Virus record (IMG/VR): IMGVR_UViG_3300017991_003073
DNA from: an uncultured virus (IMG/VR IMGVR_UViG_3300017991_003073)
Taxonomy: Duplodnaviria > Heunggongvirae > Uroviricota > Caudoviricetes
Direction: 5' to 3' (one strand)
Length of the DNA stretch: 64,000 bases
Part shown: positions 3,914 through 43,916 of the stretch, one piece after another
Layout: each line of letters starts with the position of its first letter
Numbering within the stretch: the stretch's first letter is position 1
Translations under genes and position numbers: made by a program
Notes under the pieces: generated by a model
What the model saw: the letters and a program-made list of their open reading frames with translations, nothing else
What the model was told of the DNA's origin: nothing
The model's database searches: none

Positions 3914-4020
3914 AGGTGTATACCGTGGAGTCGATAAAACAAGAGGGGCCGAGACTACTGGTCCTTCCGAGAAGGTCGTATAGTGGTGTAGCTCAGATGG
4001 ATCCTGACCTGGAGGATACT

Positions 4021-4485
4021 ATGGAAGAGCGTAAGGCCTTTGTGGATGTCATTGCCATCCTGCGGACTCTGAACCTCGTTTACCACCACGCCCATATCCA
4101 AGCGGATGGCCCGAACTTCGCTGGGGACCACGCCTTGCTCCAGAGGCTTTACCTGGGGGAAGGTGAAGACAACTGCTGCGGCCCAATCCTGGAGATCGAT
4201 GGTGTGATGGAACGGTTGCAGGGTATCTACCCTGAACACCCCTTGGCCCCTCGGGAAGTAGCAGAGGGCGTGAATGCCACTATCGGCAAACGCAAGTTCG
4301 GGGCTGGCGTCGAGAGCTACCTTCGCTTCCTGCTGGGCCTTGAACTTAGGTTGCAGGAGCGGCTCGGGGAGGCGATTCGCCTTTTCGAGCAGGAGGTCCC
4401 CAACCCCGGCGTAGCGAACCTCTTCCAGACCCTTGCGGACAACCATCAGGTGAACCTCTACCTCCTCCAACAGAGGCTGACCTAG
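4021..4485 (+). CDS. Dps/ferritin-like four-helix protein
   Basis: YHHAHIQADGPNFAGDHALLQRLY and IDGVMER resemble the Dps HW..G..F...H..F..LY and D..AER motifs; GGAGG at 4011. Confidence 0.75.
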   Translation: MEERKAFVDVIAILRTLNLVYHHAHIQADGPNFAGDHALLQRLYLGEGEDNCCGPILEIDGVMERLQGIYPEHPLAPREVAEGVNATIGKRKFGAGVESYLRFLLGLELRLQERLGEAIRLFEQEVPNPGVANLFQTLADNHQVNLYLLQQRLT

Positions 4486-5861: not shown

Positions 5862-6581
5862 CTAGAAGGGCGGATCCTCGTCCCCGTCCTCAGCGAACAC
5901 CTCCAGGCCTTCCCCTTCAGCAGGAGCGGCCTCGGCCTTCTCGGAGGGCGCGGGCTTCGGCTTCGCGGGCTCTTTGTCCGTCACACCGGGGATATACAGG
6001 TCCCCGAGATCCGGCAGATCCCCGATGATCTCGTCTCCGATGGCTTCGTTACGGGTGGACTGTCCGTACTGCTCGATGGCGTCCTTGATAGGCTTGCCCA
6101 TCCACTCCTCGGGTTCCATCCCGATTTCCTTCGGAGGGAAGGCAATCCCTGCGTCGGGGCTCACCAACTGCCCGAAACCGCCCGGTTCGTCCGGTGGTGC
6201 GAAGCAGATGTTGAAAGCCTTGCCCACGAGGTACTTCTCAATGGCATTCACCACCGCCTCGCGTTTCTTGTCGTCCTCGAACTGGGCAGCAGCCTTGCGG
6301 ACGATCACGTAGAGATCGTCCCGTAGCTTGCGCCAGCTTTCGTCGCCTGCCTTCCGAGCCGTGAGGTAGTTGTACACAGCCATCGGGCTCTTGATGATGG
6401 CGACGAGGAGATGGAGGCCACCGGAGAAGTACTTGTCCCCCGTCGAGGTGCGTTCATTTACGAAGCACCCCCACGACAGCACGTCCCCCACCTCGTCCAC
6501 GAAACGAAGGCGGATGAACGGGATCTTCTTCTCGCGGCTGACCTCGACACTCGCGGCAACACAAAGTGCGACCCGCCACAT
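5862..6581 (-). CDS. putative single-stranded DNA-binding protein
   Basis: Beta-rich N-terminus, flexible Pro/Ala/Glu linker and acidic tail ending EDGDEDPPF (compare the SSB tail DDDIPF); has its own promoter motif and terminator. Confidence 0.5.
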   Translation of the reverse strand: MWRVALCVAASVEVSREKKIPFIRLRFVDEVGDVLSWGCFVNERTSTGDKYFSGGLHLLVAIIKSPMAVYNYLTARKAGDESWRKLRDDLYVIVRKAAAQFEDDKKREAVVNAIEKYLVGKAFNICFAPPDEPGGFGQLVSPDAGIAFPPKEIGMEPEEWMGKPIKDAIEQYGQSTRNEAIGDEIIGDLPDLGDLYIPGVTDKEPAKPKPAPSEKAEAAPAEGEGLEVFAEDGDEDPPF

Positions 6582-6780: not shown

Positions 6781-9096
6781 CTACTCGAAGTCATCGAAAA
6801 GACCAGGGAAGTTGCTTCCTTCCTTCGGTCCCGCCGTTGTTGGGCGGCGGCGAGGTGTAGGCACCTCGAAAGGATCATCCTCGTCTTCGTCCCACGGCAA
6901 GGTGGGGTGGACAGCCGCAGGGGCAGATCTTCTACGGGTACGAGGTTTGGGCTTCGCCGTGGCTCCCTTGCGTTTCGCAATGCCCCTCGGGCGCGTACCC
7001 TTCTTCCGCCGATACCCGGACACCGTCTCAGCACCCAGAGCCTGCACGACGCGAGCGTCGATCTCGTAGTCGAAGATTTCGTTGCTAGAGAGCCATCCCA
7101 AAGCGAGGTCGAGGCCCGCTTCGATGGCATCCTCCTCGGTTGTATAAGGCCCATCGTCCGAGACGAGGGAGTCCACGAACGCCCCAGTAGTAGAGTCGAT
7201 GATCGCGCTCAAGTAGTACCCATCCGGTCCGAGGACGACGGAGTAGTACACCACGTCATCTTCATCCCCTACGGAGTAGGCTTCGTCCACATCCACTTCC
7301 GCAATCACTGCCGGACCCGCAGCCGTAGCTGGGGTGTAGGCCGGACATGGAGCCTGGGACACGCCCTCCAAGTCGAGACCAGCGCACCGCACGTCCGCTT
7401 CCTGAGGTGTACGGCCTCCGGCTTTGACGATCTCACTGCTGAGGATGTTCTGCTGGATGGTCCGCACGACGGCGTACCATTCCCCTTCCGCTTTCCCGTC
7501 CTCACCTGTCCGCTTCATGCGGTGCTTGCCCTCGGTGATGAAAGGTTGGAGACGAGCAAGCGAAGCCTTCTTGATTGAGGCCTTGGCGGAGAGAGGGTAT
7601 TGGATGGCAGCCAATTCCTCGGCGCGATCCATAGCGAGATCAGCGATGTGCCGACGCGCCTCATAGTACCGGTCGTTGCTGGCGTGAAGCCAACCGGCCA
7701 GCGTCTCGTATCCACAGCCTTCGTTCCATCCCCCAGGAGGCAGTGCCCCCACGGTATCGAAGGCCTGGGTGAAGTCCCTGGATCCACGTACAGGCTGCCC
7801 GTCCTCGAATACATCGACGCTAACGCGAGGTATCCTCCGGCCTACCGAGCCATTGTCGATCTTCTCGACCTCATCACGGCCAATAGCCTTGCCGGGGTAC
7901 TGGTCCCATTCCACATAAACGAGTCGCTTAGCCGGGTCTGGGTAGATCGACCGGCCTCTGGCACCTGCGATGGCCCGTACGATGCCCTCCGCCCCTTCAG
8001 GGATCCCGCTCAGGATCATCGCCGCTGGACTCACCACCCTTACTCGATCCCCCTCTTTGAAAGACTTTCCGCTTACCGTTTTCTTACCCTTCGCCTTCTT
8101 CGACTTCGCCTTCTTCTTCTTACCCATGGGACCGCTGACCGTATCGATCTCCTCCTCAGGGATGGTCCCGTCTTCGATGTTCTCCTGCAACGCTTCGCGG
8201 AGGTCGTCAGTGGACTCCGAGTCGTAGACTGCGAAACCCCACCGCTCCAGGATTTCCTGGATCTCGGCTCGGTCTAGCCAGTTGAGGCGGGAGGCGAGCG
8301 TCCCTCCGGACACCGTCTTCTTGCCCTTCTTCGTGGCTCCAGGCCGTCTGCCCTTCTTGCGCTTCACCTTCTTGGTGGAAACCGTTCCTGTAGCCTTCGA
8401 GGCCTTCTTCGCCTTCGCCTTCTTCTTCGTCCTGGGCTTTGCGCTGGCAGTCTTCTTGGCAGTGGACTTCTTCTTCTTCCTGGCTTTAGCCTTAGCCTTC
8501 GGCTTCGTCTTGCCCGAGGAGAAAGCCTCGTCACCTTCGGTCATCACACGATTGACCGCTTCCCAAGAGAACTCCACCGACTCCCCTGGATCCTCCAGCT
8601 GCGAGACATGAGCGAAGCCCTGCTTGCGCCCCTGGATCTTCGCCGGAACCCCATCGAGGGTACATTCGGCTCCGGCCCAAAGGTCCGCAAGTTTCTCCTT
8701 CGCGGTCTTCGGCTTCGCTGCTCCGGTGGTTTTGGCTCTGGTTTTGGGCTTGGGCTTAGCTTTGGGCTTGGAGCCCCCACTATTCTTCGGCTTCGCCTTC
8801 TTCTTGGGCTTGTTGCCTTTGACCGTCGCGGGCACCGAAGCCAGCTTCGTCCGCGTAGCTACCACGGGACTGCTCTTCTTCCACGCCCCCCGGATCTGTG
8901 TGTCGGTCATAGGCGACTTGGCCCACACCAAGAACCGCCCGTCCGGACCCCCCGCATCGGACACCACCGCCCGGACGTAGAAATGAGGATAGTCCGGCAG
9001 CTTCTGGGCGCTCTTGACCGCCGTGACCTCACGAGCCAACGCAGCTGCCGTACTGCGGTCGTGCCGCCCTGGGATGTAGTGGGTCCAAATCTTCAT
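6781..9096 (-). CDS. Lys-rich multidomain protein, putative virion polyprotein (771 aa)
   Basis: H1-like K/A/P tracts alternate with small globular domains, including an SH3/KOW-like FKEGDRVRV...VYVEWD. TVSG occurs 4 times, with related motifs at junctions. Confidence 0.85.
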   Translation of the reverse strand: MKIWTHYIPGRHDRSTAAALAREVTAVKSAQKLPDYPHFYVRAVVSDAGGPDGRFLVWAKSPMTDTQIRGAWKKSSPVVATRTKLASVPATVKGNKPKKKAKPKNSGGSKPKAKPKPKTRAKTTGAAKPKTAKEKLADLWAGAECTLDGVPAKIQGRKQGFAHVSQLEDPGESVEFSWEAVNRVMTEGDEAFSSGKTKPKAKAKARKKKKSTAKKTASAKPRTKKKAKAKKASKATGTVSTKKVKRKKGRRPGATKKGKKTVSGGTLASRLNWLDRAEIQEILERWGFAVYDSESTDDLREALQENIEDGTIPEEEIDTVSGPMGKKKKAKSKKAKGKKTVSGKSFKEGDRVRVVSPAAMILSGIPEGAEGIVRAIAGARGRSIYPDPAKRLVYVEWDQYPGKAIGRDEVEKIDNGSVGRRIPRVSVDVFEDGQPVRGSRDFTQAFDTVGALPPGGWNEGCGYETLAGWLHASNDRYYEARRHIADLAMDRAEELAAIQYPLSAKASIKKASLARLQPFITEGKHRMKRTGEDGKAEGEWYAVVRTIQQNILSSEIVKAGGRTPQEADVRCAGLDLEGVSQAPCPAYTPATAAGPAVIAEVDVDEAYSVGDEDDVVYYSVVLGPDGYYLSAIIDSTTGAFVDSLVSDDGPYTTEEDAIEAGLDLALGWLSSNEIFDYEIDARVVQALGAETVSGYRRKKGTRPRGIAKRKGATAKPKPRTRRRSAPAAVHPTLPWDEDEDDPFEVPTPRRRPTTAGPKEGSNFPGLFDDFE

Positions 9097-9151
9097 CGCA
9101 GATCTCCTGGTAGAAGGACGTTCTGGTGCCCTAGATTACCGTCCCTGCGAA

Positions 9152-9472
9152 TCAGTGGCCAGGGGGTGATACCCGGTTTACATCCGCTTTGCACCCACGC
9201 GCTACAACCCTCCGCCGGAGGGAAGGAGTGGGAGGCATACGCAGGAGATACAGAATAGCCTGGAGCGCCCGTACCGAGGACGGACTCGGTGTTCGGCTAC
9301 CGTTGTTCCAATGTGCGAAGGTATGGTAGTTGATGCCGGTGAGTTCGGAGAGAGTCTGGTACAACCGGGCCTTGGTTGGGCTGCTAGTTTCCTGCCGCAG
9401 TTGCTCCAATAGGTCACGAACATCGACCTCTTCGTCGGGGAACACCTTCTCTTTCAGGTCCCGCAGTCGCAT
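9152..9472 (-). CDS. XRE/Cro-family helix-turn-helix regulator
   Basis: LSELTGINYHTFAHWNNGSRTPS; GGAGG RBS at 9482..9486; start re-chosen at MRLRDLK. Confidence 0.75.
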   Translation of the reverse strand: MRLRDLKEKVFPDEEVDVRDLLEQLRQETSSPTKARLYQTLSELTGINYHTFAHWNNGSRTPSPSSVRALQAILYLLRMPPTPSLRRRVVARGCKADVNRVSPPGH

Positions 9473-9486
9473 GTCCGAAAACCTCC

Positions 9487-9511
9487 AAAACTGAAAAACT
9501 TTTGCAGTTTC
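9487..9511. promoter_or_regulatory. 25-bp palindromic operator-like site, copy 1
   Basis: AAAACTG AAAAA C TTTTG CAGTTTC, abutting the RBS of the HTH gene. Confidence 0.7.
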
Positions 9512-9512
9512 G

Positions 9513-11387
9513 CTAGTACCAGATACGACGGGCTCCCAGAGGGCTATCACCGCTAACCTCCTGCGAATCCAGAGGTTGTACTCCTTGGAAGCTACGGTGC
9601 TGTCGTGCCCGACCTTCGGCCTCCTTACGCAGGCTCTGGATCACCTTCGCCTCGGCAGCCCCTTCCCGATCCGCTTCCGCGAACGTGGCTACCTCAACAG
9701 GGAGCAAACCCTTCCGGAGCGCCATCCAAGCAGGCTCCAGGTAGTAGATCTCGGCTTGGCTGGGGCGACACACCGTGTCCGGCATAGGCGAACCGCGACG
9801 ACGCCCTCGGATCATGTTACGGGTAAGGAGATACGGCGAGTACGCGAGGTCATCCCAGATTCGATTTGGGGGAGCCCCGGCTCGGTCGAGATCTTGGACC
9901 GCGAACCCATCTACGATACCCATAGCCATTCGGTACCGCGTCTCGTCGGCCTTCGAGGGAACCGAGACGCCACCCGCACGGTTCACAGAGGTCAGCACGA
10001 ACACCCGGTGCTTCTGCGCCGACCCTGGAACCACTACTTCCAGGCTCACTACGATGTAGTCGCCCTCGCGAAGGCCGCGCCCCACAGTCCTTTTGTTGGG
10101 GTCTCGACCCAGCAACCGATTAACGAGATCGAGCCCAGTAGTATTGGTCCTGGTACGCCCATCCTCAGCGTTGAAGTACCACAACTGCACTGAGGTCAGC
10201 CTACCCAATGGTTGGGGCGAACCCCAATCCGCACCACGCTGCTCGGGCTTGCTCAAATCGAAAGGTGAATCGAACAACGCATGGGAGGCCACCGCTACGA
10301 TCATCCGCTCTTCCAACGCAGGCCCCGGTGGAAGGTTGAAGAGGTAGGGCACATTCGGCCTGTTGCCGTTTCGCGGAAGAGCCCCGTACTCCTGCATAAG
10401 ATCGACGCCAGCCTTACCCGAGACCTCGTTGACGAGTGCAGCCCTGCCTGCAAGCCGCGTTAGAGCCGCCTTGGCCTCAGGGTTCTCCTGTGCCAACGAG
10501 ATCATGGCATCGATACCAGGATTTGTAATACCCAGCTTCCGCAATTCAGTGGTTAGCCTTCCGAGCCCAACTGGCAGGTCGTCCACAGGTCGTTCCGAGA
10601 TCCGACTAACCCCAACAGGAGGGGCCTGGGGTCGGGGGACGGCCTTGCGAGCAGGTTGACTGATACCGACGCCTGGACCAAGTCGCCGGGCGACGGTCGC
10701 CACCTCCGGCGATGCGATGGATTGACGCTCCTGCTTCGCCCTCCTCACATCTTCAGGCTCTGCCTCTCCGTGGAAGATGCCGTCAGGTGGTTCGGGTTCC
10801 TCAGGTTCTGGAGAATCTCCTGCATCCGCCGAAGCAGTCGTTGCAGACTCTCCGGACGATCCTTCTTCCTGGTCCTCATCGCCACCACCGCTTGAATCAG
10901 CTTCACCATCGTCGCCGTCTTCTTCCTCCCCATCATCTCCGTCATCTCGATCCGCACCCCCAAAGGGATCGCCTTCGTTCCACTCAACATCATCGTCCCC
11001 GCCTGAGTCGTCGGTATCACCATCGTCGCCATCCTCTACAGAGCCCTCGTCATCTTCGTCCGCGTCCGGTTCTTCACTATCCTCGACCTCTACTTCAACT
11101 CCCGAAACTTCCCCGCTCTCCTCCTCCTCCTCTGTCGTTCGAGGGTGGGCGGTTCGAGGTTCGAGTGGGGGTCCGAGGGGATCCTCTTCGTCATCGGAAC
11201 CGACCCCATAGAAGTCTTCGTTTCTGGGTTCAAACAACCCAGGCTGCGCCCCTCCAGTTGAGAGACGCGGCCTCTGGGGTTGTGCAGCAGCTTTCCCTGC
11301 GTTTGGTCTGGTTCCACTTCCCCGTCGAACGCCACGGGCTGGCGCATCCTGGTCTTGCCAGGGGAACCTGCCTTCACCGTCTGTCAT
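9513..11387 (-). CDS. hypothetical protein with very acidic disordered N-half (624 aa)
   Basis: ORF; D/E tract; globular C-half; EVSG occurs 3 times. Confidence 0.85.
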   Translation of the reverse strand: MTDGEGRFPWQDQDAPARGVRRGSGTRPNAGKAAAQPQRPRLSTGGAQPGLFEPRNEDFYGVGSDDEEDPLGPPLEPRTAHPRTTEEEEESGEVSGVEVEVEDSEEPDADEDDEGSVEDGDDGDTDDSGGDDDVEWNEGDPFGGADRDDGDDGEEEDGDDGEADSSGGGDEDQEEGSSGESATTASADAGDSPEPEEPEPPDGIFHGEAEPEDVRRAKQERQSIASPEVATVARRLGPGVGISQPARKAVPRPQAPPVGVSRISERPVDDLPVGLGRLTTELRKLGITNPGIDAMISLAQENPEAKAALTRLAGRAALVNEVSGKAGVDLMQEYGALPRNGNRPNVPYLFNLPPGPALEERMIVAVASHALFDSPFDLSKPEQRGADWGSPQPLGRLTSVQLWYFNAEDGRTRTNTTGLDLVNRLLGRDPNKRTVGRGLREGDYIVVSLEVVVPGSAQKHRVFVLTSVNRAGGVSVPSKADETRYRMAMGIVDGFAVQDLDRAGAPPNRIWDDLAYSPYLLTRNMIRGRRRGSPMPDTVCRPSQAEIYYLEPAWMALRKGLLPVEVATFAEADREGAAEAKVIQSLRKEAEGRARQHRSFQGVQPLDSQEVSGDSPLGARRIWY

Positions 11388-16682: not shown

Positions 16683-17522
16683 CTAGCGGCCCATGTACGC
16701 CGCGCCGGGGACGTTCCCGAGCGTGGTGTTCTGCTCCAGGAGGATGGTGACCACGCCCGTCCAGATGAAGGTCTGGTCGGCGGCACCAGCGCCCGTGTCG
16801 AAGTTCCACGCCCCGCCGTTCGAGGCACGACTCGGGACCGCGATGGTCACCGGGTACTGGCTGCTCTCGGGCAGGTAGATCTCGATGGGAGCCGGGGCGT
16901 GGCTGTGCGTCGGCTCCATGCGCGGAGCGACGTAGTAGATGCTGGCGTGGCCGGCGGGCAGCGAGGTGTCACCCGCATCGACGGTCCAGTAGGAGTCGAT
17001 CCCGCCCGTGTTCTTGATCGCGCTCGCGATGGGAATCACGGTGGGGAAGGGCTGGTTCTCGATGGTCACCGCGCCCGACAGCAGCGCCCCGAAGGACGTA
17101 GCGTAGGACTCCAGCGCCGCCGTGATCTCCACGGCCTCGAACGCATTCGCGCCGTAGGCGTCGAAGGCGATGGTCACGTCACGCACGACCGCGAAGGTCT
17201 GCGCGTCCGTGACGAGGGTGAAGGATCCAGCACCGGGGACACCCCCGGCATCGGGACCTGCGACCAGATCGGCGGCGAAGTCCGAGACGATCTCCGTGCC
17301 CGTGTCGGCCACGAAGAACGCCCCGTTGACGACCTCGAAGACGCGCTTCGTGATCTGGAGCGAGTTGTTGGGATCCGGGCACGGAGGGGCCTGGAACATC
17401 TGGATGGCCGGGACCGGGCAGTTCGGGTTGCCCGCGTACACCTGCGGAGCGGCCATCGGCGGAGGGGGAACGGCAGCCATGGGAGCGGCCTGCCCGACGT
17501 TCATGGGGAAGAGTCCCTGCAT
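16683..17522 (-). CDS. candidate major capsid protein (279 aa; possibly jelly-roll)
   Basis: Very strong G/C third-position codon bias by eye, strong AGGAG RBS, dedicated terminator and beta-rich A/G/T/V composition. Fold not verified. Confidence 0.55.
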   Translation of the reverse strand: MQGLFPMNVGQAAPMAAVPPPPMAAPQVYAGNPNCPVPAIQMFQAPPCPDPNNSLQITKRVFEVVNGAFFVADTGTEIVSDFAADLVAGPDAGGVPGAGSFTLVTDAQTFAVVRDVTIAFDAYGANAFEAVEITAALESYATSFGALLSGAVTIENQPFPTVIPIASAIKNTGGIDSYWTVDAGDTSLPAGHASIYYVAPRMEPTHSHAPAPIEIYLPESSQYPVTIAVPSRASNGGAWNFDTGAGAADQTFIWTGVVTILLEQNTTLGNVPGAAYMGR

Positions 17523-17595: not shown

Positions 17596-19317
17596 CTAGT
17601 AGCCGCCGAAGTAGGTGGAGAAGAGCCCGCTGACCGTGGCCTGGAGGGCGTTGGCCTCGGCAGGAGCGGTGTGGACGTACCCCGAGCAGACGAGCCCGAT
17701 GGACGGAGCCTCACCCTGCGAGGTGCCGACCGGAGCGCCAGACACCAGGAAGTTGTTCCCGTTGTACATGCTGGCACCGGAGACAGCGGACGCGGACGGG
17801 GCCGAGATGTTCGGCGGCACCTGGGCACCCCAGGCAGTCACCTGATCGCCACCGTAGCCCCAGGTGTGGCCGTTGTTGCTGATGTAGTTCAGCAGGAAGG
17901 CCGTGGTGACTTCGGAGGGCGACCACCCCTTGTTGTTGCTGGCGATCCAGTGCGCCCACGGATACAGGGTATCGAGGTCGAGGGCACGGCCCTGAGCGGT
18001 TTCGACGGTCACTTCCTCGACGGAAGGTGCGGGTAGCATGACCGTCTCGCCCGTCCGAGCATCCTCCACCGCGATCTCCTCAGACACCGGAACAGGTGCC
18101 TGCATCGCCGGTTGCATCGCCGGTTGCATCGCGGGCTGCATCGCGGGCTGCATCGCCGGTTCCATCGCCGCAGGAGCCCCTGCACCCAACCCTGCAATCA
18201 GGGCGCGGGCGACGACGCCGTAGGTCTTGGCTTCCGACAGGGCTGCGATGGCACGATAGAGGTCGCCGTTGTCGAGGTGGTACTGCACCATCTCTAGCGG
18301 GACGCTCATCGACGCCAAGTGCTTGGCAGCGGAGTCGTAAACCTGCTCCTGCTCGTAGTTAAAAGGGCCTTGGATCCCGTCTAGCGCGGCGTCCAGGGAA
18401 GCCTTCTCATCCTGCAACGACTTCAAGACAGCGCCGGTCTCGTCCGTGGAGTAGGGCGGCATACCTTGCACGTCTTCCCCTTCCTCCATGGGCAGGCCAT
18501 CCGGCAGCGCACCGCCGTCTCCCTGCTGGTTCGCCAGCTGGTTCGCCTGAGCCAAGGCTGCTGCCGGGGCCGCAGTACCAAACACCTGCGGGAGCCCCAT
18601 CAGGGACTTGTCGCCAGCGATGTACTGCCCGACGCCCTGCTCCGGCTTGATGACACCGAAGTACCCGAGGAGGTTCGTCAGTCCGGCGAGACCGAACATC
18701 GAAACCGCCCCGTCCTTCATGTCGGCCAGGAAGGGCTTCTGGATGCGGTTGGCAGGCAGGAAGCGGTACGCGAGGTACGCCCCGGCCAGTGAGGTGATGA
18801 CCTTGGTGAGGCTCGCCCGCTTCGCCATGTTCTGGCCAGCGGCGGGTTTCATCACGGCGTCGAGTCCCTTCGCGACGAAGTCGGACAGGACCCCACCGGC
18901 AGCGTTGGCGGCGAGCATCCCGACGCCCCGCGAACCGGCGCGGACGACTTCCTTCGAGAAGAACTGCTTCAGCGCGAGGCCCTGCATGGGGCCTTGGCCC
19001 GTGGTCGCGGGCTTACGCCCTGCGCCACGACGCCCCTGGACCGGGCGGCGGGCACCCGTGGTCCGAGGCGGCTGGACCATTACCTTGACGGACTTTGTTC
19101 CGGCCACGGTAGTCTCCTTCTTGCTTCTGGGTTTCGGCTTGGAGCCTGTGGATCCCCCCGAAGTCGTCCGAGCCGTCGTTGCCTTCTTCGCCCCAGGCCT
19201 CGACCCCTTCTTGCGAGAGGGGCGAGAACCGGAGGTTGACTTCGGCTTCGACTTTTTGGCTTTGGCTTTCTTCGAGGAGGTACTCCGCTGGCCCCCAGCC
19301 ACGGTGATCTGCTTCAT
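17596..19317 (-). CDS. probably highly expressed Lys-rich, membrane-associated virion protein (573 aa)
   Basis: GGAGG RBS before MKQITVAG; basic N-terminus; three hydrophobic helices; biased codons; many xVxG/xTxG motifs. Confidence 0.8.
   Translation of the reverse strand: MKQITVAGGQRSTSSKKAKAKKSKPKSTSGSRPSRKKGSRPGAKKATTARTTSGGSTGSKPKPRSKKETTVAGTKSVKVMVQPPRTTGARRPVQGRRGAGRKPATTGQGPMQGLALKQFFSKEVVRAGSRGVGMLAANAAGGVLSDFVAKGLDAVMKPAAGQNMAKRASLTKVITSLAGAYLAYRFLPANRIQKPFLADMKDGAVSMFGLAGLTNLLGYFGVIKPEQGVGQYIAGDKSLMGLPQVFGTAAPAAALAQANQLANQQGDGGALPDGLPMEEGEDVQGMPPYSTDETGAVLKSLQDEKASLDAALDGIQGPFNYEQEQVYDSAAKHLASMSVPLEMVQYHLDNGDLYRAIAALSEAKTYGVVARALIAGLGAGAPAAMEPAMQPAMQPAMQPAMQPAMQAPVPVSEEIAVEDARTGETVMLPAPSVEEVTVETAQGRALDLDTLYPWAHWIASNNKGWSPSEVTTAFLLNYISNNGHTWGYGGDQVTAWGAQVPPNISAPSASAVSGASMYNGNNFLVSGAPVGTSQGEAPSIGLVCSGYVHTAPAEANALQATVSGLFSTYFGGY
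18098..18170 (-). repeat. 12-bp coding tandem repeat (PAME/PAMQ, about 6 units)
   Basis: TGCATCGC(C/G)GG(T/C) units. Confidence 0.9.
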
Positions 19318-19391: not shown

Positions 19392-21581
19392 CTACGCAGC
19401 GAGGTGGCGACAACTCTCCTTTGCTAGTGCGACGAGTACCGGAGTTCCTACGCTAGTCCCCGACGATGAGATCCTATCGGCCCGAAGGGATCCCTCGACG
19501 GTTGGATTGAACGGAGCGCAAGCGCCGGTAGACGAACAATACTCACCGTAGGACCGTCCCACAGCGAGCGCATTGGCAGGGGACATTCCGCTTACCAGTG
19601 CTGCCTGCTGAGTCGCCCCAACAACAGCCTGGACCGGAACCCCACCAACACGTTTCACGGACCTAGCAACCGCTGGTGCGCCCACCAGCGAGGCTAAGAT
19701 CTTCTTGAGGGTATCGTTCCCTTCGGGACGCATCGCCCCGGCCATCTCCTGGAGATTGGCCAACAGGGAAGCGAAATCGAACTCACCGGTCTTAGCAGCC
19801 TTTTCTGCGACAGGAGCCGCAGCGGCTTGGAGGATGTCCGGTATACCCTTGGCGTTTCCGCCCAAAGCGTCGAGCAGACCTCCGTCGCCTCCGAACAGCG
19901 CAGCGATGGCTTCCGTGCCCTTCCCGGCGCTCTCTTTCTTGGCGACGATCTCGATCTCTTCGCCCGCTTCCGCCAAGGCTCCTTCGCCTTCTCCGAGGAT
20001 CTTCCCGAGAACTTCCATCAGACCCCCGGAAGAACCAGAATCTCCTAACACCTTCGAGACGATGCTGCCCAGGTTGTCTGCTTTGCCTCCTAGGACAGAA
20101 GAGCCGAGTTTTCCGATGATATCAGCTATACCACCCCCCTCGGCGGAACCACCCCCACCAAGAAGACTCGGAGCGATCTTGGATAGCATGGGTAGGATCG
20201 AACCACCTGCGGCACCCAAGCTACCTAGGAGAGGAGCAGCAGCCCCGCCGGTCACAGCGGTCAAAGCAATCCCCGCCAAAGCAGGCCAGTTGTCCTTGAG
20301 GAATGACCCTGCGCCCTTGGCGAACTTCTTCAGGCCCTTGGTGATGCCCAGCTTCTTATCCAGTTGCTTCAGCTTCTTCACCGCACCCTTGGCGTTCCGC
20401 TCTACGAACTTGCCTACTGGCTTGATGACTTTCTTGTGGACGAACTTGGCCGCACTCTTCACGGCATTACCAACGCCCTTCAACGCTCCGCCGATGGCCT
20501 TCTTCGCCTTCTTGAACAGCTTCCCGAGGAAGCCAACTTCGCCGGGGTGGCCGCAACCCGTAGCGTCGAGAATCGGCCCAGCCACAACCTGGGTACCGTC
20601 TTTGAAGGTGATAATCTCGAACCCCCGCACCTTCAACTCGCGCTCCAGAGCCGCTCGGTTGGCTTCGATGATCGACTTAACTCCTGGGAACCCTTGCTCC
20701 ACCGCCATCACTTCGGCTAGCGAAGCGATCTGGCTCTGAGTCATGGACTGCGAGACCTTCGGCCCATGGACGGCATTGTTGTAGCGCCACCCTGGAGCAA
20801 AGCAATTCGGGTTCTCGGTCGCCGCATCGAATAGCCCATTGAGCCTCGAAGCAATACACCGACGTAGCTTGTAGTTGGGCATCGTTTCTGGCGTCCAGAG
20901 GAGCCAGAAAAGACGGCGTGGTTGGGTGTGGGGTCGGAACCAACGGGGGTCGCAGCTGTTGTACCCCGGCAACGGGCCACAGGAACGGATCGGGCGACAC
21001 GGCTTCGGGGGCCAGCATGGACCGGACGTGGTCGGCACCTCGCCCTTCTGCTGGAGGTACTGGATCACGGCTTCCGTGCCCCGCTTCGGATCCACCAGCA
21101 TTGCCTCGATCAGACTCTCCTCGGTCGCCTTCGGACCGTAGACGCTACGCGGGCGATACGTCCCCGAGAAGATCGGAGGCCGATCCGGCACGTAGTTTTC
21201 CCCAAGGTAGCCCTGAGCATCGCACTCGCAGTCCGCACCGACCGTCGAGCCTCCGCAGGTGCAGCCGTGACCATGACGCGCCCAACCCGGCTTCGGAGGC
21301 ACGGGCATCCGCTCATCGGAAGCACGACAGAACGCTGGGATGGTGCAGCTATCATACCCCATTGGGGGATTGTAGTACGGCAGGCTGACCGGAGGGATGA
21401 GCGTCCCCGGATTGTACGCCTGGGGATACGCAGGTGGGCAAGGCACCCCCGCCGTAGCAGGACGCTTCTGACCCACCGGAAGAGGCGCGGTAACCGGAGG
21501 CCCCGCGACCAGCTTCAAGCTATGGTTGATCTGGTCGTGGAGTTCCAGTGGTGTACCCGAGGTGTATTGGTCGGTTCTCAT
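19392..21581 (-). CDS. putative virion protein with cationic amphipathic helix and Gly-rich hydrophobic region (729 aa)
   Basis: GFLGKLFKKAKKAIGGALKGVG... followed by WPALAGIALTAVTGGAAAPLLG. Confidence 0.8.
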   Translation of the reverse strand: MRTDQYTSGTPLELHDQINHSLKLVAGPPVTAPLPVGQKRPATAGVPCPPAYPQAYNPGTLIPPVSLPYYNPPMGYDSCTIPAFCRASDERMPVPPKPGWARHGHGCTCGGSTVGADCECDAQGYLGENYVPDRPPIFSGTYRPRSVYGPKATEESLIEAMLVDPKRGTEAVIQYLQQKGEVPTTSGPCWPPKPCRPIRSCGPLPGYNSCDPRWFRPHTQPRRLFWLLWTPETMPNYKLRRCIASRLNGLFDAATENPNCFAPGWRYNNAVHGPKVSQSMTQSQIASLAEVMAVEQGFPGVKSIIEANRAALERELKVRGFEIITFKDGTQVVAGPILDATGCGHPGEVGFLGKLFKKAKKAIGGALKGVGNAVKSAAKFVHKKVIKPVGKFVERNAKGAVKKLKQLDKKLGITKGLKKFAKGAGSFLKDNWPALAGIALTAVTGGAAAPLLGSLGAAGGSILPMLSKIAPSLLGGGGSAEGGGIADIIGKLGSSVLGGKADNLGSIVSKVLGDSGSSGGLMEVLGKILGEGEGALAEAGEEIEIVAKKESAGKGTEAIAALFGGDGGLLDALGGNAKGIPDILQAAAAPVAEKAAKTGEFDFASLLANLQEMAGAMRPEGNDTLKKILASLVGAPAVARSVKRVGGVPVQAVVGATQQAALVSGMSPANALAVGRSYGEYCSSTGACAPFNPTVEGSLRADRISSSGTSVGTPVLVALAKESCRHLAA

Positions 21582-23107
21582 ACCTTGCTCCTGGGGAGGA
21601 ATCCGGCTACCGACGAACGGCCACGGATACGGGGCAGAACAGGAAGTCCCGCAGCTGTCCCGTACCGACGCCGTTGTTCGTCAAGGTAGATCTTGTAGGT
21701 CTGAGGCTGGGAAGGGACGAAGTCCTGGAAGTTCGATCCCCGGTCCATCTCCTGCCCCCACGGGAGCGGCGACGATACGTCGTAGATTCGCCGCATCCCG
21801 TTCTGGAGCATGATGAACGGGTAAACGTGGAACTTGTCCGTTTCCCCTGGGTTGCCTGCCAGACGCACCCCAGTGCGAAGGCCACATGACTCCGCTAACG
21901 CCATGAAACACGCAGTCAGGTCGTCGCAATCGTACTTCTGGACCCCTGGGTAGTAAGTGTGTGTCAGGAACATCCGCAGAGGCGTGGCTGTCTCTTCCAC
22001 ACCCACGGTCTCTTCTGCGTAGGCAAAGATCGTCCTCACCGTATTTGCCAGGAGTTCCGCCAACTGCACTGGGTCAGTAGGCCAGACCCCTCCTGTTTGG
22101 GCTGTCACCGCATCCCGAGCGATGGCCCGGAATATATACCCGTACCGCTGGGCGTACAGGGCAGTCATGTAAGCGATGATCGAGCCTGTGGCGTAGGGTC
22201 CAAGGTTCTCCGCCACAGCACCCTTGGCCCGAGGGAAGTGCTGCTTGGCGAGGAAAGGCGAATGGAGATCGTCGGGAATGTGTTCCGCTTCCTTCCGCAG
22301 CCACTCGAACCACTGCGGAATGGGGCGGATCTTCGGACGGTCCCAGAAGCGCGACCCTTGGGTTCTCCCGGACCCCACGAGGTGCCCTCGAATCGGGAGC
22401 CGACCAATAGCCTTCGGAGCGCGTCCATAGTCGCGTCCCTTGGGTACACCCTTGGTAGCGTGGGCCTGGAAATGCTGGCGGTTTGTCCCTTTAGGAGCGA
22501 CCCCCAACTGATCCGAGGTGAGATCCACCGGGAACCAGTTATTCGAGTCGGGATCTAACTGACACTCCGCGTACGCCCGGTAGCTACCGTTCTGTTGGAC
22601 GATCACGAACCGAGTTGGGATACCCATAGCCTCTACGAGCATCAGGTAGAACAGCGTGGCCTCGTCGTCGGAAAGTGTGTCAAGGCCCTGGTACACCGTC
22701 TCCACGAGGACTCGAAGCGGATTGCGCCATTCTCCCGGTTGATCGCCAGTCAAGATCCGGTAGTTGCCTTGGACGATCCGAGCCAGGGCTAACACCGCAG
22801 GTTGGCGGTATTGCAACGCTGGCCGTGTCTCCCGCACCCCTGCATTGTGCAGCAACGCCGAAGCAACCCAACGGAAGACCATCAGGGTCTTCTTGTAAAG
22901 GTTTGCCATATCCACGGCCATCTTCCCTGCCACGTCAGGCCGGAAGGAGCCCGGAAGCTGTTGCTGTTGTTGCAGGCGAAGTTCCCCGTCGCGCAAGGTA
23001 ATGTCCGGTACGAACCGCTCATCGATATTGAGCAATTCAAGTTCGACCCACGGAGCCGCTACGCCCCGGAGATCTACACTACCTGTACTCGGTCGGAGAT
23101 TCGTCAT
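21578..23107 (-). CDS. tandem transglutaminase-like (papain-fold) protein, putative maturation protease
   Basis: The C-terminal domain YDCDDLTACFMALAESCG...FHVYP...IYD gives a Cys-His-Asp triad. The N-terminal copy (SDDEATLFYLMLVEAMGIPTRFV...RAYAE...WFPVD) lacks Cys and His. Confidence 0.75.
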   Translation of the reverse strand: MTNLRPSTGSVDLRGVAAPWVELELLNIDERFVPDITLRDGELRLQQQQQLPGSFRPDVAGKMAVDMANLYKKTLMVFRWVASALLHNAGVRETRPALQYRQPAVLALARIVQGNYRILTGDQPGEWRNPLRVLVETVYQGLDTLSDDEATLFYLMLVEAMGIPTRFVIVQQNGSYRAYAECQLDPDSNNWFPVDLTSDQLGVAPKGTNRQHFQAHATKGVPKGRDYGRAPKAIGRLPIRGHLVGSGRTQGSRFWDRPKIRPIPQWFEWLRKEAEHIPDDLHSPFLAKQHFPRAKGAVAENLGPYATGSIIAYMTALYAQRYGYIFRAIARDAVTAQTGGVWPTDPVQLAELLANTVRTIFAYAEETVGVEETATPLRMFLTHTYYPGVQKYDCDDLTACFMALAESCGLRTGVRLAGNPGETDKFHVYPFIMLQNGMRRIYDVSSPLPWGQEMDRGSNFQDFVPSQPQTYKIYLDEQRRRYGTAAGLPVLPRIRGRSSVAGFLPRSKV

Positions 23108-31604: not shown

Positions 31605-31727
31605 CAACGATCTTGCCCACGGGCGGAGTCCCTGGATGAACCTTGTTGGTAGATTCCGGGTTTGGAGGCCATAAATCGCGTACCGGGGGATTTTACTCCA
31701 ACCGCCCGTGGGCTCCCACTTTCAGCT

Positions 31728-32444
31728 ATGGGGAAAAACATGGACCGCATCGACCCGATCTCGATCATGCTCGAACTGGGGGCTTTGCAACTGGGTACGT
31801 TCACCCTCAAATCCGGAAGGGAGTCGCCCTACTTCTTCAACATCGGAGAGGTGAACGAAGGGCGGGGGATGGTGACCCTTGCCAACCTCTTTGCGGTTTC
31901 GATTCGGCGGCTCGTGGTCGCGAAGACGGATCCTAAGATGCAGGAGCCTTCGATCATCTTCGGGCCTGCGTACAAGGGCATCCCCTTGGCCGTGGCAACG
32001 GCGATGGCTCTGGCTGAGGATGCGCCTTTCCATCGGTGGCAGAATACCATTCGGTGGTCCTCCGACCGGAAGGAGGAGAAGAAGCACGGAGAGAAGGCGA
32101 AGTTCCTCGGGGCGACTCCGACTGCGGACGATGTGGTGGTCATCGTGGATGATGTCATCACGACGGGGCAGACCAAGATCGAGGCCCTCCAGAAGGTCAC
32201 GGATACTGGGGCTACGGTGGCTGGCGTGGTGGTGGCCCTCGACCGGATGGAGCGGGGTGGCGACGAGAAGGACGCTGTCCAGGACTTCGAAACGGCGACG
32301 GGTGTTCCGGTCTTCTCCCTCGCTACGGTGAAGGATCTTGCGGCTCTTCTGGAGGAGCAGAATCCCGATAGCTACAAGGCCTTACAAGACTACCTCATGC
32401 GATTCGGCTCGAAGCGTTTCTTCGATCTAGACAGCGCCACTTAA
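31728..32444 (+). CDS. pyrE: orotate phosphoribosyltransferase
   Basis: GTFTLKSGRESPYFFN, FGPAYKGIPLA, RKEEKKHGE and PRPP motif VIVDDVITTG; start uncertain. Confidence 0.95.
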   Translation: MGKNMDRIDPISIMLELGALQLGTFTLKSGRESPYFFNIGEVNEGRGMVTLANLFAVSIRRLVVAKTDPKMQEPSIIFGPAYKGIPLAVATAMALAEDAPFHRWQNTIRWSSDRKEEKKHGEKAKFLGATPTADDVVVIVDDVITTGQTKIEALQKVTDTGATVAGVVVALDRMERGGDEKDAVQDFETATGVPVFSLATVKDLAALLEEQNPDSYKALQDYLMRFGSKRFFDLDSAT

Positions 32445-32471
32445 CGGATCGGCAGCGCAGTACCCCTGGTT

Positions 32472-32505
32472 GAGGGCGGGTCGCGAGGCTCGCCCTCGTT
32501 GTTTT
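32472..32505 (+). terminator. terminator-like hairpin between pyrE and pyrF
   Basis: GAGGGCGGG...CTCGCCCTC followed by GTTGTTTT. Confidence 0.5.
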
Positions 32506-32518
32506 AAGGAGGAATGGG

Positions 32519-33274
32519 ATGGACCTGAAGAACAGAATCGTCGTTGCCTTGGATGGGATCTCGGCGGCGGCTGCGGCAAAGCTGGTGACTCTGCTGAGCC
32601 CTCTCGTTTGGGGGTTCAAGATGAACGACTTGTTCCTTGATCCCCTGGGGCCTGCACTAGCCAGGATCATCGTCCAGTCGAAGGCGAAGCTGTGGCTTGA
32701 TCTGAAGCTACATGACATCCCGAACACCGTTAAGAACCAGCTGAATCGGCTCGCGAACTACATGCCTTCACTGGTGACGGTACACGCATCAGGAGGGATC
32801 GGGATGCTTACGGCGGCTTGCGAAGCGGCTCGGGACACCCGAAAGAGTCTGCATTACACGGATGTTGGGGAAGTTCCGGAGTTAGGGATCCTGGCTGTAT
32901 CGGTGCTGACCTCCCTGAGCGCCGAGGAATGCGAGAAGATCTACGGCAGCGTCCCTGCGGAGAAGGTTCCGATGTTCGCTACCTTGGCAAGGGATGCGGG
33001 TGTTTGGGGTGCGGTCTGCTCAGGGCACGAGGCTCGACAGGTGCGGGATCTAGGCCTACGGCCTGTCGTCCCAGGGATCCGCCCAGAGTGGTTCCTCGCG
33101 GAACAGAACGTGTCTCAGGACGATCAGAAGCGGGTGGTGACCCCGTGTAAGGCCTTGGACTTCGGGGCGGAACTGCTGGTCATCGGAAGGCCTATCGTGA
33201 AGAGCGAGGACCCGCTAGTGGCCGTGGAGCGGACGATCTCCGAACTGGAGGACAACTACGGCGTTGCCGACTGA
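32519..33274 (+). CDS. pyrF: orotidine-5'-phosphate decarboxylase
   Basis: IVVALD, LDLKLHDIPNTV, TVHASGG, VLTS, PGIRP, DDQKRVVTP and VIGRPI. Confidence 0.96.
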   Translation: MDLKNRIVVALDGISAAAAAKLVTLLSPLVWGFKMNDLFLDPLGPALARIIVQSKAKLWLDLKLHDIPNTVKNQLNRLANYMPSLVTVHASGGIGMLTAACEAARDTRKSLHYTDVGEVPELGILAVSVLTSLSAEECEKIYGSVPAEKVPMFATLARDAGVWGAVCSGHEARQVRDLGLRPVVPGIRPEWFLAEQNVSQDDQKRVVTPCKALDFGAELLVIGRPIVKSEDPLVAVERTISELEDNYGVAD

Positions 33275-39942: not shown

Positions 39943-40491
39943 CTACATAGAGGGGGCCGGGGCGCGAGTCCCGGCCTCTCCTTTTTGAAAAACTTTTTCA
40001 GTTTCGAGGATCCAACCCAGAGGGGTGATGTCCTCCTCGGGCTCGGTGAGAACGTCCAGAGTCACCCGTTGCCCTGCTAGCTGTGCGTTCCAGACTACCC
40101 AGGGCTCCTCCAGCCCTTCGTGGGTCCACCCTTCAAGAATCTGGCTCCGCTCGATCTTGCTCCCCTCCAGCGTCTCCTTGTGATCCTCATAGAGACACCT
40201 CCACGTCCACAGCATCAGGCCTGTAACGGGGCGTTCCCAGTCCAGATGAACGCGCCCCACCTCTTCGAGGGTAACCAACAGGAGGGGCTGTTCGATCCCC
40301 CTTCTACGCCACTCCAGTTTGATGCGGAGTGACCGAGGTACCCAGGCACCTTCTACGAAAGGGGACGGCTCCAGGAGAACGGATCCCATGCGTTCCCTGG
40401 TATCGCGGCCTGTCAGGCTTTCGGCCACGATCTCGATAGATTCATCGCCCTGCCGGATCGAGAACAGGACATCGACACGCTCTAAATGCAC
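39943..40491 (-). CDS. hypothetical protein (GTG start re-chosen)
   Basis: Part of ORF 39943..40629; AGGAGG upstream of the GTG at about 40491. Confidence 0.6.
   Translation of the reverse strand: MHLERVDVLFSIRQGDESIEIVAESLTGRDTRERMGSVLLEPSPFVEGAWVPRSLRIKLEWRRRGIEQPLLLVTLEEVGRVHLDWERPVTGLMLWTWRCLYEDHKETLEGSKIERSQILEGWTHEGLEEPWVVWNAQLAGQRVTLDVLTEPEEDITPLGWILETEKVFQKGEAGTRAPAPSM
39949..39986 (+). terminator. terminator after the LamG gene
   Basis: AGGGGGCCGGG...CCCGGCCTCTCC followed by TTTTT. Confidence 0.55.
39981..40005. promoter_or_regulatory. 25-bp palindromic operator-like site, copy 3
   Basis: CTTTTTG AAAAA C TTTTT CAGTTTC. Confidence 0.5.
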
Positions 40492-40585
40492 AGCCCCCTC
40501 CTGTTGCGGGTTTCCGGTTTCTGATGGAGAATGTGGCGTAGCAAGATTAGACCGAGCGTTGGTCAATACCATAGAAAGCAGAGCC

Positions 40586-41308
40586 ATGAACTGGACGGAG
40601 TACGCATTCGACACCGAGGCCGAGGCCAATGCTTTCCGGCAAGGAATCGAGTTCGAGCGCGAGGAGGTCCCTACGATTCAGGTCGAGTATCGGGACGATG
40701 CTGGGGAGTGGGTGGTGATGGTGGCTGAGGTCGCTACGGTCCAGGGGGACTGGGAGGACGATGAAGAACCTGAGTGGGAGCCTCAGGACGACGACATATT
40801 CATCCCTTGGAACAGCAGACCAGAGGTGTACGAGGCCTATTACATCAGGAAGCCGATTGCGGAAGCTGAAGACTTCGATTCGCTTCTCGCTGAGATCAAG
40901 TCTTGGATGGAGAAGAGCCAGTACTGGCCGAATGTGTGGGCGGAAGGGGAGCGCGGCGGATACGACCTCGTGAACCTGGAGACGGGTGAGTACATGTTCT
41001 ACCATCCCGGAGTGGGCGGCCCGACTGTGGGGATGGAGCCAGGGATGACTGCTGATGGTGAGGTGAGTACCGACCCCAACGACTGGCCGTCAGAAAACGA
41101 GATCGAGGAGATCTTCCGCAAGGGTCCAGAGTTCCAGGGGATGCTGGACCCCACTCGCGTCGAGGTGTTTTGGGAGCATGACCAGTACTGGATCCGGATC
41201 GAGGACGAGGGATATGACGCGAACGATAGCCTCGCGACCCGGACTTTCTCCGTGGTCGCTGCCGATCCTGGTGTCGAGAACTCCGGCATCGACTTCGAGG
41301 AGGTTTAG
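40586..41308 (+). CDS. acidic three-module protein (start re-chosen at MNWTEY)
   Basis: Three small acidic domains joined at ATVQG and PTVG. Confidence 0.8.
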   Translation: MNWTEYAFDTEAEANAFRQGIEFEREEVPTIQVEYRDDAGEWVVMVAEVATVQGDWEDDEEPEWEPQDDDIFIPWNSRPEVYEAYYIRKPIAEAEDFDSLLAEIKSWMEKSQYWPNVWAEGERGGYDLVNLETGEYMFYHPGVGGPTVGMEPGMTADGEVSTDPNDWPSENEIEEIFRKGPEFQGMLDPTRVEVFWEHDQYWIRIEDEGYDANDSLATRTFSVVAADPGVENSGIDFEEV

Positions 41309-41374
41309 GTCACCTGGGCGTCTTGTTCGGCGGTTCGGGCGGAGTGCCTAGGTCTATGAGCCTGCTCGTGTGCT

Positions 41375-42745
41375 TTACTCCCCGAGAGCGGCTTCGAGTA
41401 GGAGGTCCCCGTCGCTGAATGCCCCGGCATACATGGACTCGTAGAGCCATACCGCTTGGGCAACCTCCAGCGGCTTCATACCCTTGAGCCACGTCATCCC
41501 TCGTTCCTTGCTGCTGGGGAGAGCCAAAGCATCGCGGATAGCAGTGTCAAACTTCGCCGCCGATAGGCCAGCTTCACTCCTCGCTTCCCGGAACTTCTCT
41601 TGGATGGTGTCTCCGATGAAGGTCCACTGCTGGATTGGGTGGTTGGGATCGTCGAGGTTCTGGAGGAACGCTTCGGCCCAGTCGAGGCGGTTGTCGATGT
41701 ACCTTTGAAGGTCTTCGGCCTCGATCTCTTCCGGTGGGATTGGCTCCCCAGTGTCAGGGTCTTGGAGGGCGACGAAGGCACGGAGGAAACCCGTAGCAGC
41801 GCCTGCGATGTCGGCAGTGTACAGGGCCGCGTCTACCGCTAACTCAGCTATGGTATCGGACCCTTGCTCATGCCACGCCCGGAACTGGTAGGGCCGGATA
41901 TGCCCTATGATGCTGCTGAAGTTGACCCGGTAGGAGCCGTCGAGGAGCGACTCGATGGAGGGGGCTTTCAGAACAAGGTCGTGGATGTGGTTGGCCTCGT
42001 AGTTTTCGGTCCAGTCAGGGCTGTAACCCGCAACAGCCTCGGCTAGATCCTTCAGCCACTCTCGAACGGCATCAGGGTAAGGTTCGATGTACTTGGAGGT
42101 GGGGGCGAGTGTTTGCTGTCCTTCGGCGTTGAAGGCTTCTACGAACACAGGGTCGAGCATCTCCGCGAGGAAGCTGGGGTTCTTCCCGTAGCGGAGCCTT
42201 CCCTTCAGCTGGCTCTCGAAGATCTGGTGGATCGCGTTGAGTCGTTCAACCACAGGGCCGACCATTTCATCGATCTCGTTTACGTAGACGGAACCTACAG
42301 AACCGCCGGTCACCCCTTTCTTGGCGCACTCTGGGCCGATGCCCCGTTCGATGGACTCGGGTGTTGTAAGCCGCCGACCGCAACGCATACACTTCGCTTC
42401 GCCCAGTAGCCGGTAGCCCTTCTTGTGGAGAGCGGCCTCTTCGCGGAACTGCGCGAGGGACAGGAGCGTTTTCGCGGCCTTGGGGTAGAACCCAGAGTCG
42501 GTGTCCCGGTACTTCTTCCAGACGTAGATCTCCCGGCCATCCTTGCTCATAAACCCAAACGGTGTCCAGTCGTCCGAGTTGTTCGGCCCCGTGAGCATGT
42601 AAACCACACGCTGGCCCGGAGCGAACTTGGACTTCTTTGGTTGGGTCTGGACCTTGAAGGTACGATGGCCTCCCTTCGGGGATTCGATGGTCCAGATCCC
42701 GTTGAGGAGACCGAACTCTTCGGTCCAAGCGATAGGTTGTGTCAT
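41375..42745 (-). CDS. DUF6011-like Zn-binding domain protein with C-terminal helical extension
   Basis: CMRCGRRLTTPESIERGIGPECAKK. Confidence 0.8.
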   Translation of the reverse strand: MTQPIAWTEEFGLLNGIWTIESPKGGHRTFKVQTQPKKSKFAPGQRVVYMLTGPNNSDDWTPFGFMSKDGREIYVWKKYRDTDSGFYPKAAKTLLSLAQFREEAALHKKGYRLLGEAKCMRCGRRLTTPESIERGIGPECAKKGVTGGSVGSVYVNEIDEMVGPVVERLNAIHQIFESQLKGRLRYGKNPSFLAEMLDPVFVEAFNAEGQQTLAPTSKYIEPYPDAVREWLKDLAEAVAGYSPDWTENYEANHIHDLVLKAPSIESLLDGSYRVNFSSIIGHIRPYQFRAWHEQGSDTIAELAVDAALYTADIAGAATGFLRAFVALQDPDTGEPIPPEEIEAEDLQRYIDNRLDWAEAFLQNLDDPNHPIQQWTFIGDTIQEKFREARSEAGLSAAKFDTAIRDALALPSSKERGMTWLKGMKPLEVAQAVWLYESMYAGAFSDGDLLLEAALGE

Positions 42746-43910: not shown

Positions 43911-43916
43911 GGCGTT

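Follow-up and report, generated by a model that had tools for sequence, protein, structure and literature searches.

Here we describe an open reading frame (ORF) at positions 6781-9096 of IMGVR_UViG_3300017991_003073, an uncultured virus record, which probably encodes, judging from its sequence, a virion core precursor that a neighbouring enzyme would cut into basic DNA-compacting peptides and small cargo proteins. The window in which the gene lies, that is, the whole 64,000-nucleotide stretch of DNA analysed here, covers the first 64 kb of a contig that measures 71.7 kb. Within the chain, a short glycine-ending tag stands at most of the joints between modules, the modules have free-standing small relatives, and the same tag recurs in a block of structural genes that includes a candidate capsid protein and a candidate maturation protease. 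Coordinates are collected in Table 1.

The glycine tag and the modules between its copies

A preliminary description, made from the sequence alone, had read the chain as a histone-H1-like polyprotein that falls into modules at a glycine motif. All nine of the motifs it quoted are present: TVSG at residues 261, 319, 340 and 691, SVG at 417 and 608, TVG at 448, TAAG at 591 and TTAG at 753. Four copies of TVSG stand against 0.02 expected, a number reached in none of 20,000 shuffles, and the broader pattern [TS]V[SA]?G occurs seven times against 0.74 expected, again in none of 20,000. As a guard against choosing the motif after the fact, we looked for any lysine-free word of four different residues present four times, and found it in 0 of 5,000 shuffles. 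Plain VG, tried as the motif, shows no enrichment (3 against 4.9 expected). The codons of TVSG differ among the four copies, with serine written both as TCC and as AGC, which points to a signal at the protein level, under selection on the protein; a DNA-level repeat or recombination cassette is thereby ruled out. The only full-length homologue, 95% identical, retains eight of the nine quoted sites, the ninth, TVSG340, having become TGGG.

The four basic tracts contain no aspartate or glutamate at all, in keeping with the lysine-rich region described before, although that region also hides a fifth small domain, module A, with its core at residues 133-186. No family match was obtained for the whole ORF in Pfam (E<=0.01), PHROG or NCBIfam, and its segments gave weak matches only, with no linker-histone or Hc1/Hc2 profile and no winged-helix domain among them; the name H1-like therefore holds for the lysine-, alanine- and proline-rich composition only. 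No relatives turned up in the viral_contigs or genome_contigs sets, and residues 262-696 have none among GenBank phages.

To define modules without reference to the motif, residues 262-696 were searched with phmmer, which returned 294 proteins at E<=0.001; re-alignment of the 150 listed proteins and one further protein gave 155 domain hits, and all hit counts for modules B to E below are among these listed matches (150 of 294, plus one). The limits of the cores were taken from hit medians, and those of module C by inspection. Coverage falls into four blocks, B (267-318), C (346-415), D (456-586) and E (597-675). Seven of the eight motifs in residues 259-696 lie outside these cores, even though the cores fill 76% of that interval (binomial P 3e-4), and the distance from core edge to nearest motif is 3-8 residues at seven of the eight edges and 19 residues at the eighth. 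At the level of sequence, then, the modules are definable from their homologues independently of the motif, and the motif is found at most joints. The proposed parse holds to this extent; its exception is YSVG608, which lies inside the acidic domain.

The preliminary description had named homologous domains that span the motifs as the observation that would count against it. We scored a crossing wherever a listed hit passed a site by at least 8 residues on each side. Crossings are few at TVSG261 (2 of 28 hits), TVSG319 (2/34), SVG417 (2/13), TVG448 (2/12), TAAG591 (8/105) and TVSG691 (1/30), and amount to 6 of 13 at TVSG340. Alignments of 16 proteins were inspected, 13 of them crossing some site other than SVG608; the inspected crossings at 261, 319, 340, 591 (three of its eight) and 691 are run-ons of low identity, and one of those at TVG448 is explained by a crossing protein that itself bears the tag. 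At SVG608, 96 of 103 hits span the site. Members of the module E family read Y-[VLI]-G at this position, with glycine in 84 of 102, so that the motif is part of the domain: YSVG608 is ruled out as a border, and the acidic domain begins after TAAG591. A border at TTG636 is likewise ruled out, since this site falls inside conserved domain E. At SVG417 the two hits that run on bring the 28-residue spacer (420-447) against the stretch that follows the SH3-like domain of P0111 and P0141; this likeness is not significant (equalled in 3915 and 381 of 5000 shuffles), and SVG417 is therefore a probable, not a certain, module border.

Stand-alone small relatives, the proposed check for modular cargo, were found for every globular module searched. 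Among the listed hits, relatives no longer than 1.5 times the domain make up 19 of 29 for B, 3 of 13 for C, 2 of 11 for D and 52 of 102 for E, and nearly all begin with methionine (18/19, 3/3, 2/2 and 51/52, respectively), with the proviso that short metagenomic proteins may be clipped by contig ends. Module A, which is flanked only by the degenerate sites TTG and SSG, has in a separate search a relative of 71 amino acids (aa) at 58% identity (E 8.9e-9). Its match to the 65-aa gp141 of Rhodococcus phage Trina is weak (E 0.08) and reaches 1e-9 when a two-sequence profile is run on a small local set.

Module C is probably SH3-like by sequence: four of eight aligned members match Pfam SH3_12 weakly (best E 0.017), the copy in the window itself being without a match, and the alignment found nothing useful among PDB sequences. 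Modelled alone from seven sequences, module D gives a mean predicted local distance difference test score (pLDDT) of 80 and a predicted template-modelling score of 0.75, with low-confidence ends where the tags sit; structure searches with it returned no match (best Foldseek E 1.8; best Z 4.3). A scan of 30 module relatives found one PHROG match. In a structure atlas, the acidic module resembles hypothetical proteins of 75-78 aa at template-modelling scores of 0.56-0.59; all structure matches there fall below the naming threshold, and the atlas feature search had no matches.

Where the modules occur elsewhere, the tag is mostly missing from B, C and E: it stands upstream of 0 of 13, 1 of 12 and 0 of 67 relatives, and downstream of 1 of 15, 0 of 11 and 0 of 81, respectively. 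Copies of module D elsewhere have a tag upstream in 9 of 10 cases and downstream in 7 of 11, and the seven proteins that carry D hold 26 tags against 2.3 expected. One of them, P0027, repeats D three times in tandem, each edge being marked by a tag; in another, P0100, tags stand between D, DUF5661 and a PolX polymerase, all in one chain. By these counts the tag travels with the viral lineage, not with the cargo. The simplest history would be that the modules were captured from a pool of small genes and acquired tags upon insertion. Modules B and C also occur in six other long proteins (P0118, P0119, P0124, P0129, P0111 and P0141), which seem to be punctuated by other motifs, x-Asn-Pro or Lys/Arg-x-Ala-Ala/Ser; by eye and from raw counts, these differing motifs hint at other lineages with a tag of their own.

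The structural gene block and related loci

Thirteen metagenome loci were found, one of which belongs to a record of 618,894 bp; a gene block is common to the window and the longer of these loci. A 110-kb record has an identical capsid-candidate sequence. In the structural genes of five loci, which are related orthologues and not independent samples, [TS]V[SA]?G occurs 12 times against 5.0 expected in the window (the ORF itself excluded), 12 against 4.9 in L003, 15 against 5.6 in L007, 12 against 2.9 in L008 and 22 against 4.7 in L011. In an unbiased count over these genes TVG is the most enriched three-residue word (39 against 8.9), with VAG and VSG third and fourth. In 27 enzyme and other genes of G000 there is no excess (8 against 6.2).

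The capsid candidate has 24 homologues, 22 of which carry xVG within their first 23 residues, and its model is all-beta (pLDDT 73). In Foldseek, Sulfolobus polyhedral virus 1 ranks first (SPV1; PDB 6oj0, E 1.7e-3, probability 0.98); a wide structure search ranked nucleoplasmin-like jelly rolls (Z 9.0, root-mean-square deviation 2.7, 90 residues aligned) and SPV1 (Z 7.5, deviation 3.8, 132 aligned). With moderate confidence, the model points to a single-jelly-roll capsid protein, presumably the major one. No relatives of it were found among GenBank phages. The enzyme at 21578-23107 has Transglut_core as its sole Pfam match (E 1.8e-6), its C394, H427 and D443 are invariant in all five aligned homologues, and it has no match among PDB sequences. 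In the window, L007 and L008 this enzyme has an extra N-terminal transglutaminase-like domain without the catalytic cysteine, while in L010 and L011 only the active domain is present. In the protein at 19392-21581 an EVG at residue 350 is followed by a lysine-rich amphipathic helix. A tag-like site lies ahead of the aligned helix in six of six orthologues (one reads TTD-G), and in four of the six the hydrophobic moment of the helix is among the highest 3%, which makes the helix, on sequence grounds, a candidate membrane-penetration peptide.

Terminase, portal and tail families found no match among the 39 and 29 proteins scanned, from a contig that is partial, and the jelly-roll protein takes their place; a simple Walker-A pattern gave no packaging-ATPase candidate on this partial contig, yet it also missed the helicase's own motif. 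The virus is probably a tailless giant bacterial virus.

In L007 the slot of the ORF is occupied by a plain 345-aa protein with 135 lysines and arginines, whose tags are near the C-terminus only. Similarity between the N-terminus of the ORF and this protein is not significant (3183 of 5000 shuffles). L003 and L008 end short of the slot. In L011 the homologue of the gene at 17596 has a long lysine/arginine tract broken by TVG four times; together with the lysine-rich gene of L007, this suggests that a basic component with tags is a recurrent feature of the lineage, though not one of constant form.

Table 1. The tagged chain, its parts and the associated genes in the window (residue numbers are those of the ORF product)
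Feature	Position	Strand	Remarks
Motif-punctuated polyprotein ORF	6781..9096	-	771 aa; 137 Lys+Arg, 102 Asp+Glu
AGGAG, ribosome-binding-site-like	9104..9108	-	7 nt ahead of ATG
N-terminal segment, 1-76	8869..9096	-	no relative identified in segment scans
Basic tract 1, 77-127	8716..8868	-	16 Lys/Arg, 0 Asp/Glu; ends in degenerate TTG
Module A, 128-191	8524..8715	-	71-aa single-domain relative, 58% identity
Basic tract 2, 196-260	8317..8511	-	33 Lys/Arg, 0 Asp/Glu
TVSG 261-264, module border	8305..8316	-	
Module B, 265-318, acidic	8143..8304	-	29 domain hits listed, 19 in short proteins
TVSG 319-322, module border	8131..8142	-	
Basic tract 3, 323-339	8080..8130	-	10 Lys/Arg
TVSG 340-343, module border	8068..8079	-	TGGG in 95% homologue
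Module C, 344-416, probably SH3-like	7849..8067	-	13 domain hits listed, 3 in short proteins
SVG 417-419, probable border	7840..7848	-	2 of 13 hits extend weakly over site
Spacer, 28 aa, 420-447	7756..7839	-	
TVG 448-450, border	7747..7755	-	common to relatives of helical module D
Module D, 451-590, all-helical	7327..7746	-	11 copies in 7 listed proteins, mostly tag-flanked
TAAG 591-594, border between helical D and acidic E	7315..7326	-	
Module E, 595-690 (core 597-675)	7027..7314	-	23 Asp/Glu, 1 Lys/Arg; 102 listed domain hits, 52 short
TVSG 691-694, border	7015..7026	-	
Basic tract 4, 695-724	6925..7014	-	15 Lys/Arg
TTAG 753-756, then 15-aa terminal peptide	6829..6840	-	
Small upstream gene	9152..9550	-	L007 homologue (E 2.6e-8) also precedes Lys-rich gene
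Single-jelly-roll capsid candidate, N-terminal xVG tag	16683..17522	-	model and structure searches
Structural-block protein, basic tag-bearing N-terminus	17596..19317	-	
Protein with tag-like site directly ahead of amphipathic helix	19392..21581	-	candidate membrane-penetration precursor
Transglutaminase-fold enzyme	21578..23107	-	candidate maturation protease

Several further observations concern the lineage and its other genes. Much of the structural block has homologues on the 618,894-bp record (L011), and a 329-kb contig bears a further homologue of the capsid candidate; these are very large genomes for a single-jelly-roll virus. A free-standing D protein, P0030, and the capsid homologue P0008 are both listed with a longest contig of 329,333 bp and probably belong to one related virus. 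Just past the window a second tagged chain of 661 aa is encoded (G000:C1 64536-66521, plus strand, the same as L016:2537-4522), with a match to the phosphorothioation-associated methyltransferase family TIGR04096 at residues 10-178 and an XF1762-family domain at 472-610; its tags are a cluster at 188-199, TVGG at 347 and a C-terminal VVG directly before the stop. Four further genes, at 40319-45077 of the window, string small domains at tag-like sites: for example, phrog_20259/DUF6011 ends at residue 145 and SVG149 follows, and phrog_9437 ends at 93 and TTAG103 follows. Host-like metabolic genes are found at 31662-33274, 47890-49122, 3916-4485 and 60646-63348; by Pfam scan these include an aminotransferase of the cysteine-desulfurase type, a class II ribonucleotide reductase and a ferritin-like protein, and two genes resemble pyrE and pyrF.

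Proposed processing and its alternatives

In the mechanism that we propose, the uncut chain, with a net charge of about +35, would bind and compact the viral DNA through its basic tracts and would thereby be co-packaged. During particle maturation, the enzyme encoded at 21578-23107 would cut after the glycine of the tag, and this cutting would loosen the core, in the manner of pVII and mu of adenovirus, and free the small domains, which would then reach the next host together with the genome. The predicted products are basic peptides of net charge +22, +33, +10 and +11 and modules of 6.6-15.6 kDa, computed on the assumption of cuts at 125 and 195, both of them degenerate sites. Because the relative L007 has a simple lysine-rich gene in the same slot, the comparison suggests that cargo was inserted into an ancestral condensing protein. 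Two of the modules are strongly acidic (net -12 and -22), and, as a guess from charge alone, might be DNA-mimic counter-defence proteins.

A number of findings weigh against such processing. Two sites, YSVG608 and TTG636, fall within a conserved domain, where cutting would have to be prevented, the tag is degenerate, and TVSG340 reads TGGG in the 95% homologue. Seven non-structural control proteins of the loci have a mild excess of tags (5 against 2.4), and the G000 enzyme set has two exact copies of TVSG against 0.1 expected. Two proteins end on tag-like sequence (VVG in the chain at 64536-66521, TTG in P0027), where nothing is left to remove. The capsid assignment is itself moderate (E 1.7e-3; Z 7.5), orthology to the L007 gene is a matter of position and composition only, and the slot is empty in L011. 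Finally, the contig covers 71.7 kb of a genome of at least 110 kb, which leaves room for another protease.

Tags at the extreme C-terminus of two proteins, and tags clustered back to back, as at residues 188-199 of the chain at 64536-66521, would suit an unlikely alternative, in which the tag is a docking address for an assembly factor or for the inner face of the capsid, and the chain enters the particle and is delivered in one piece, like beads on a string. An address and a cut site can coincide, as they do in the capsid-targeting sequence of phage T4. Delivery of a whole chain has precedent, since some polyvalent proteins, among them the N4 virion RNA polymerase, ArdC and TraC1, are described as travelling unprocessed (PMC5512222). 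Yet modules and short basic peptides alike have a tag at either end, which goes beyond what an address needs; tags lie near the N-terminus of the capsid candidate and directly ahead of the amphipathic helix, positions typical of propeptide removal; and a conserved Cys-His-Asp enzyme is encoded in the block. The fold of that enzyme allows another role, which we judge very improbable: it would be a transpeptidase or transglutaminase that cuts at the tag glycine and attaches the resulting piece to a lysine on a different virion protein; the core or shell would become cross-linked, with the lysine-rich tracts as acceptors. Transglut_core is indeed its only Pfam match, the proteins ending in VVG or TTG would fit a C-terminal-glycine conjugation signal, and lysines are plentiful beside the tags. 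Against this, microbial members of the transglutaminase fold are mostly hydrolases, and cross-linking would fix in place modules that are free proteins elsewhere.

It is also quite doubtful that the product is no virion component at all, but an intracellular DNA-binding scaffold fused from neighbouring small genes, with the tags as linkers or as relics of a lysine-rich ancestor. The gene does stand at the edge of the structural block, beside a gene (5862-6581) whose product has an acidic C-terminal tail; it is absent from the L011 slot, and one tag is altered in the close homologue. But the tags flank modules whose outside relatives have none, they use different codons, the other eight quoted sites are unchanged in that same homologue, and the structural block of five loci bears this tag as well.

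Known systems and meaning for the lineage

Ripening of core polyproteins at glycine motifs is textbook knowledge for adenoviruses, poxviruses and African swine fever virus. In the last two, the precursors pp220 and pp62 of African swine fever virus (at Gly-Gly-X) and the poxvirus core precursors (at Ala-Gly-X) are cut after glycine into several virion proteins by a viral cysteine protease; these are eukaryotic double-jelly-roll viruses with another protease family, and their products are fixed and conserved, not swappable domains. Among prokaryotic viruses, the best viral structural match of the capsid candidate, SPV1 of the Portogloboviridae, has a genome of roughly 20 kb, far below the 110-619 kb of the related records here, and we know of no tag or processing system in it.

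A close likeness is to adenoviruses. There the protease AVP cuts glycine motifs in pVI, pVII and mu; the uncut forms of pVII and mu are stronger DNA condensers than the proteins made from them, and the cleavage prepares the particle for uncoating (PMC4246237). Common to both systems would be basic DNA-condensing precursors, a tailless virion, short glycine motifs on many virion proteins, and a single cysteine protease with a membrane-active protein among its substrates. The motifs differ, the AVP motif being given in the same text as (M/I/L)XGG|X or (M/I/L)XGX|G, in contrast to [TS]V[SA]?G here (PMC4246237); the borders TVSG, SVG, TVG and TAAG all fail the AVP consensus. By its Pfam match the candidate enzyme here has a transglutaminase fold, and it does not match adenain; the virus described here has a prokaryotic host and a single jelly roll as its capsid candidate. 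Strings of captured domains, as in this chain, are absent from the adenovirus precursors.

Polyvalent proteins offer a precedent for multi-domain cargo delivered cut or uncut (PMC5512222). Like our chain, they unite unrelated domains that are also found alone, and packaging, delivery and proteolytic release have been proposed for them (PMC5512222). The five modules with short relatives fall within the 2-15 unrelated, separately occurring domains by which polyvalent proteins are recognised. The proteins covered there come mostly from portal-terminase phages and type IV secretion system elements and contain catalogued enzymatic domains, often with an internal zincin peptidase (PMC5512222), whereas Pfam, NCBIfam and PHROG scans detected no catalogued domain and no internal peptidase here; the present chain has instead interleaved basic condensing tracts and an explicit, repeated border tag. 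H1-like genes have been reported in jumbo "moraphages", which are tailed phages (PMC12619734). Histone H1 and chlamydial Hc1-like proteins resemble the present chain in their lysine/alanine-rich tracts, for which a role in genome compaction is proposed. Our tracts differ in having no profile match, in their shortness, in the acidic domains that separate them and in the tags at their ends.

In the literature searched, which covered few subscription journals, we found no account of this virus group or of its tag, and no description of glycine-motif ripening of core polyproteins for prokaryotic jelly-roll viruses. What this ORF adds is sequence evidence that free-standing small proteins may have been captured between tags inside a condensing protein. 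More tentatively, the viruses could form a lineage, so far undescribed, of giant viruses of prokaryotes with a single-jelly-roll capsid (records of up to 619 kb), in which the tag acts as a universal load-and-release code: small genes captured between tags, whether in the condensing protein or in other chains (PolX, the methyltransferase, tandem helical domains), would be packaged and then freed by the transglutaminase-fold protease, and the core protein would serve as a swappable effector cassette. If ripening at the tag does take place in these viruses, the enzyme, its predicted site and its substrates would all be at hand, and the tag would give a sequence rule by which virion-delivered proteins can be spotted across the lineage. 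Five unannotated families of small proteins would become likely early-acting cargo, and the gene would illustrate how a condensing protein can turn into a modular delivery vehicle.

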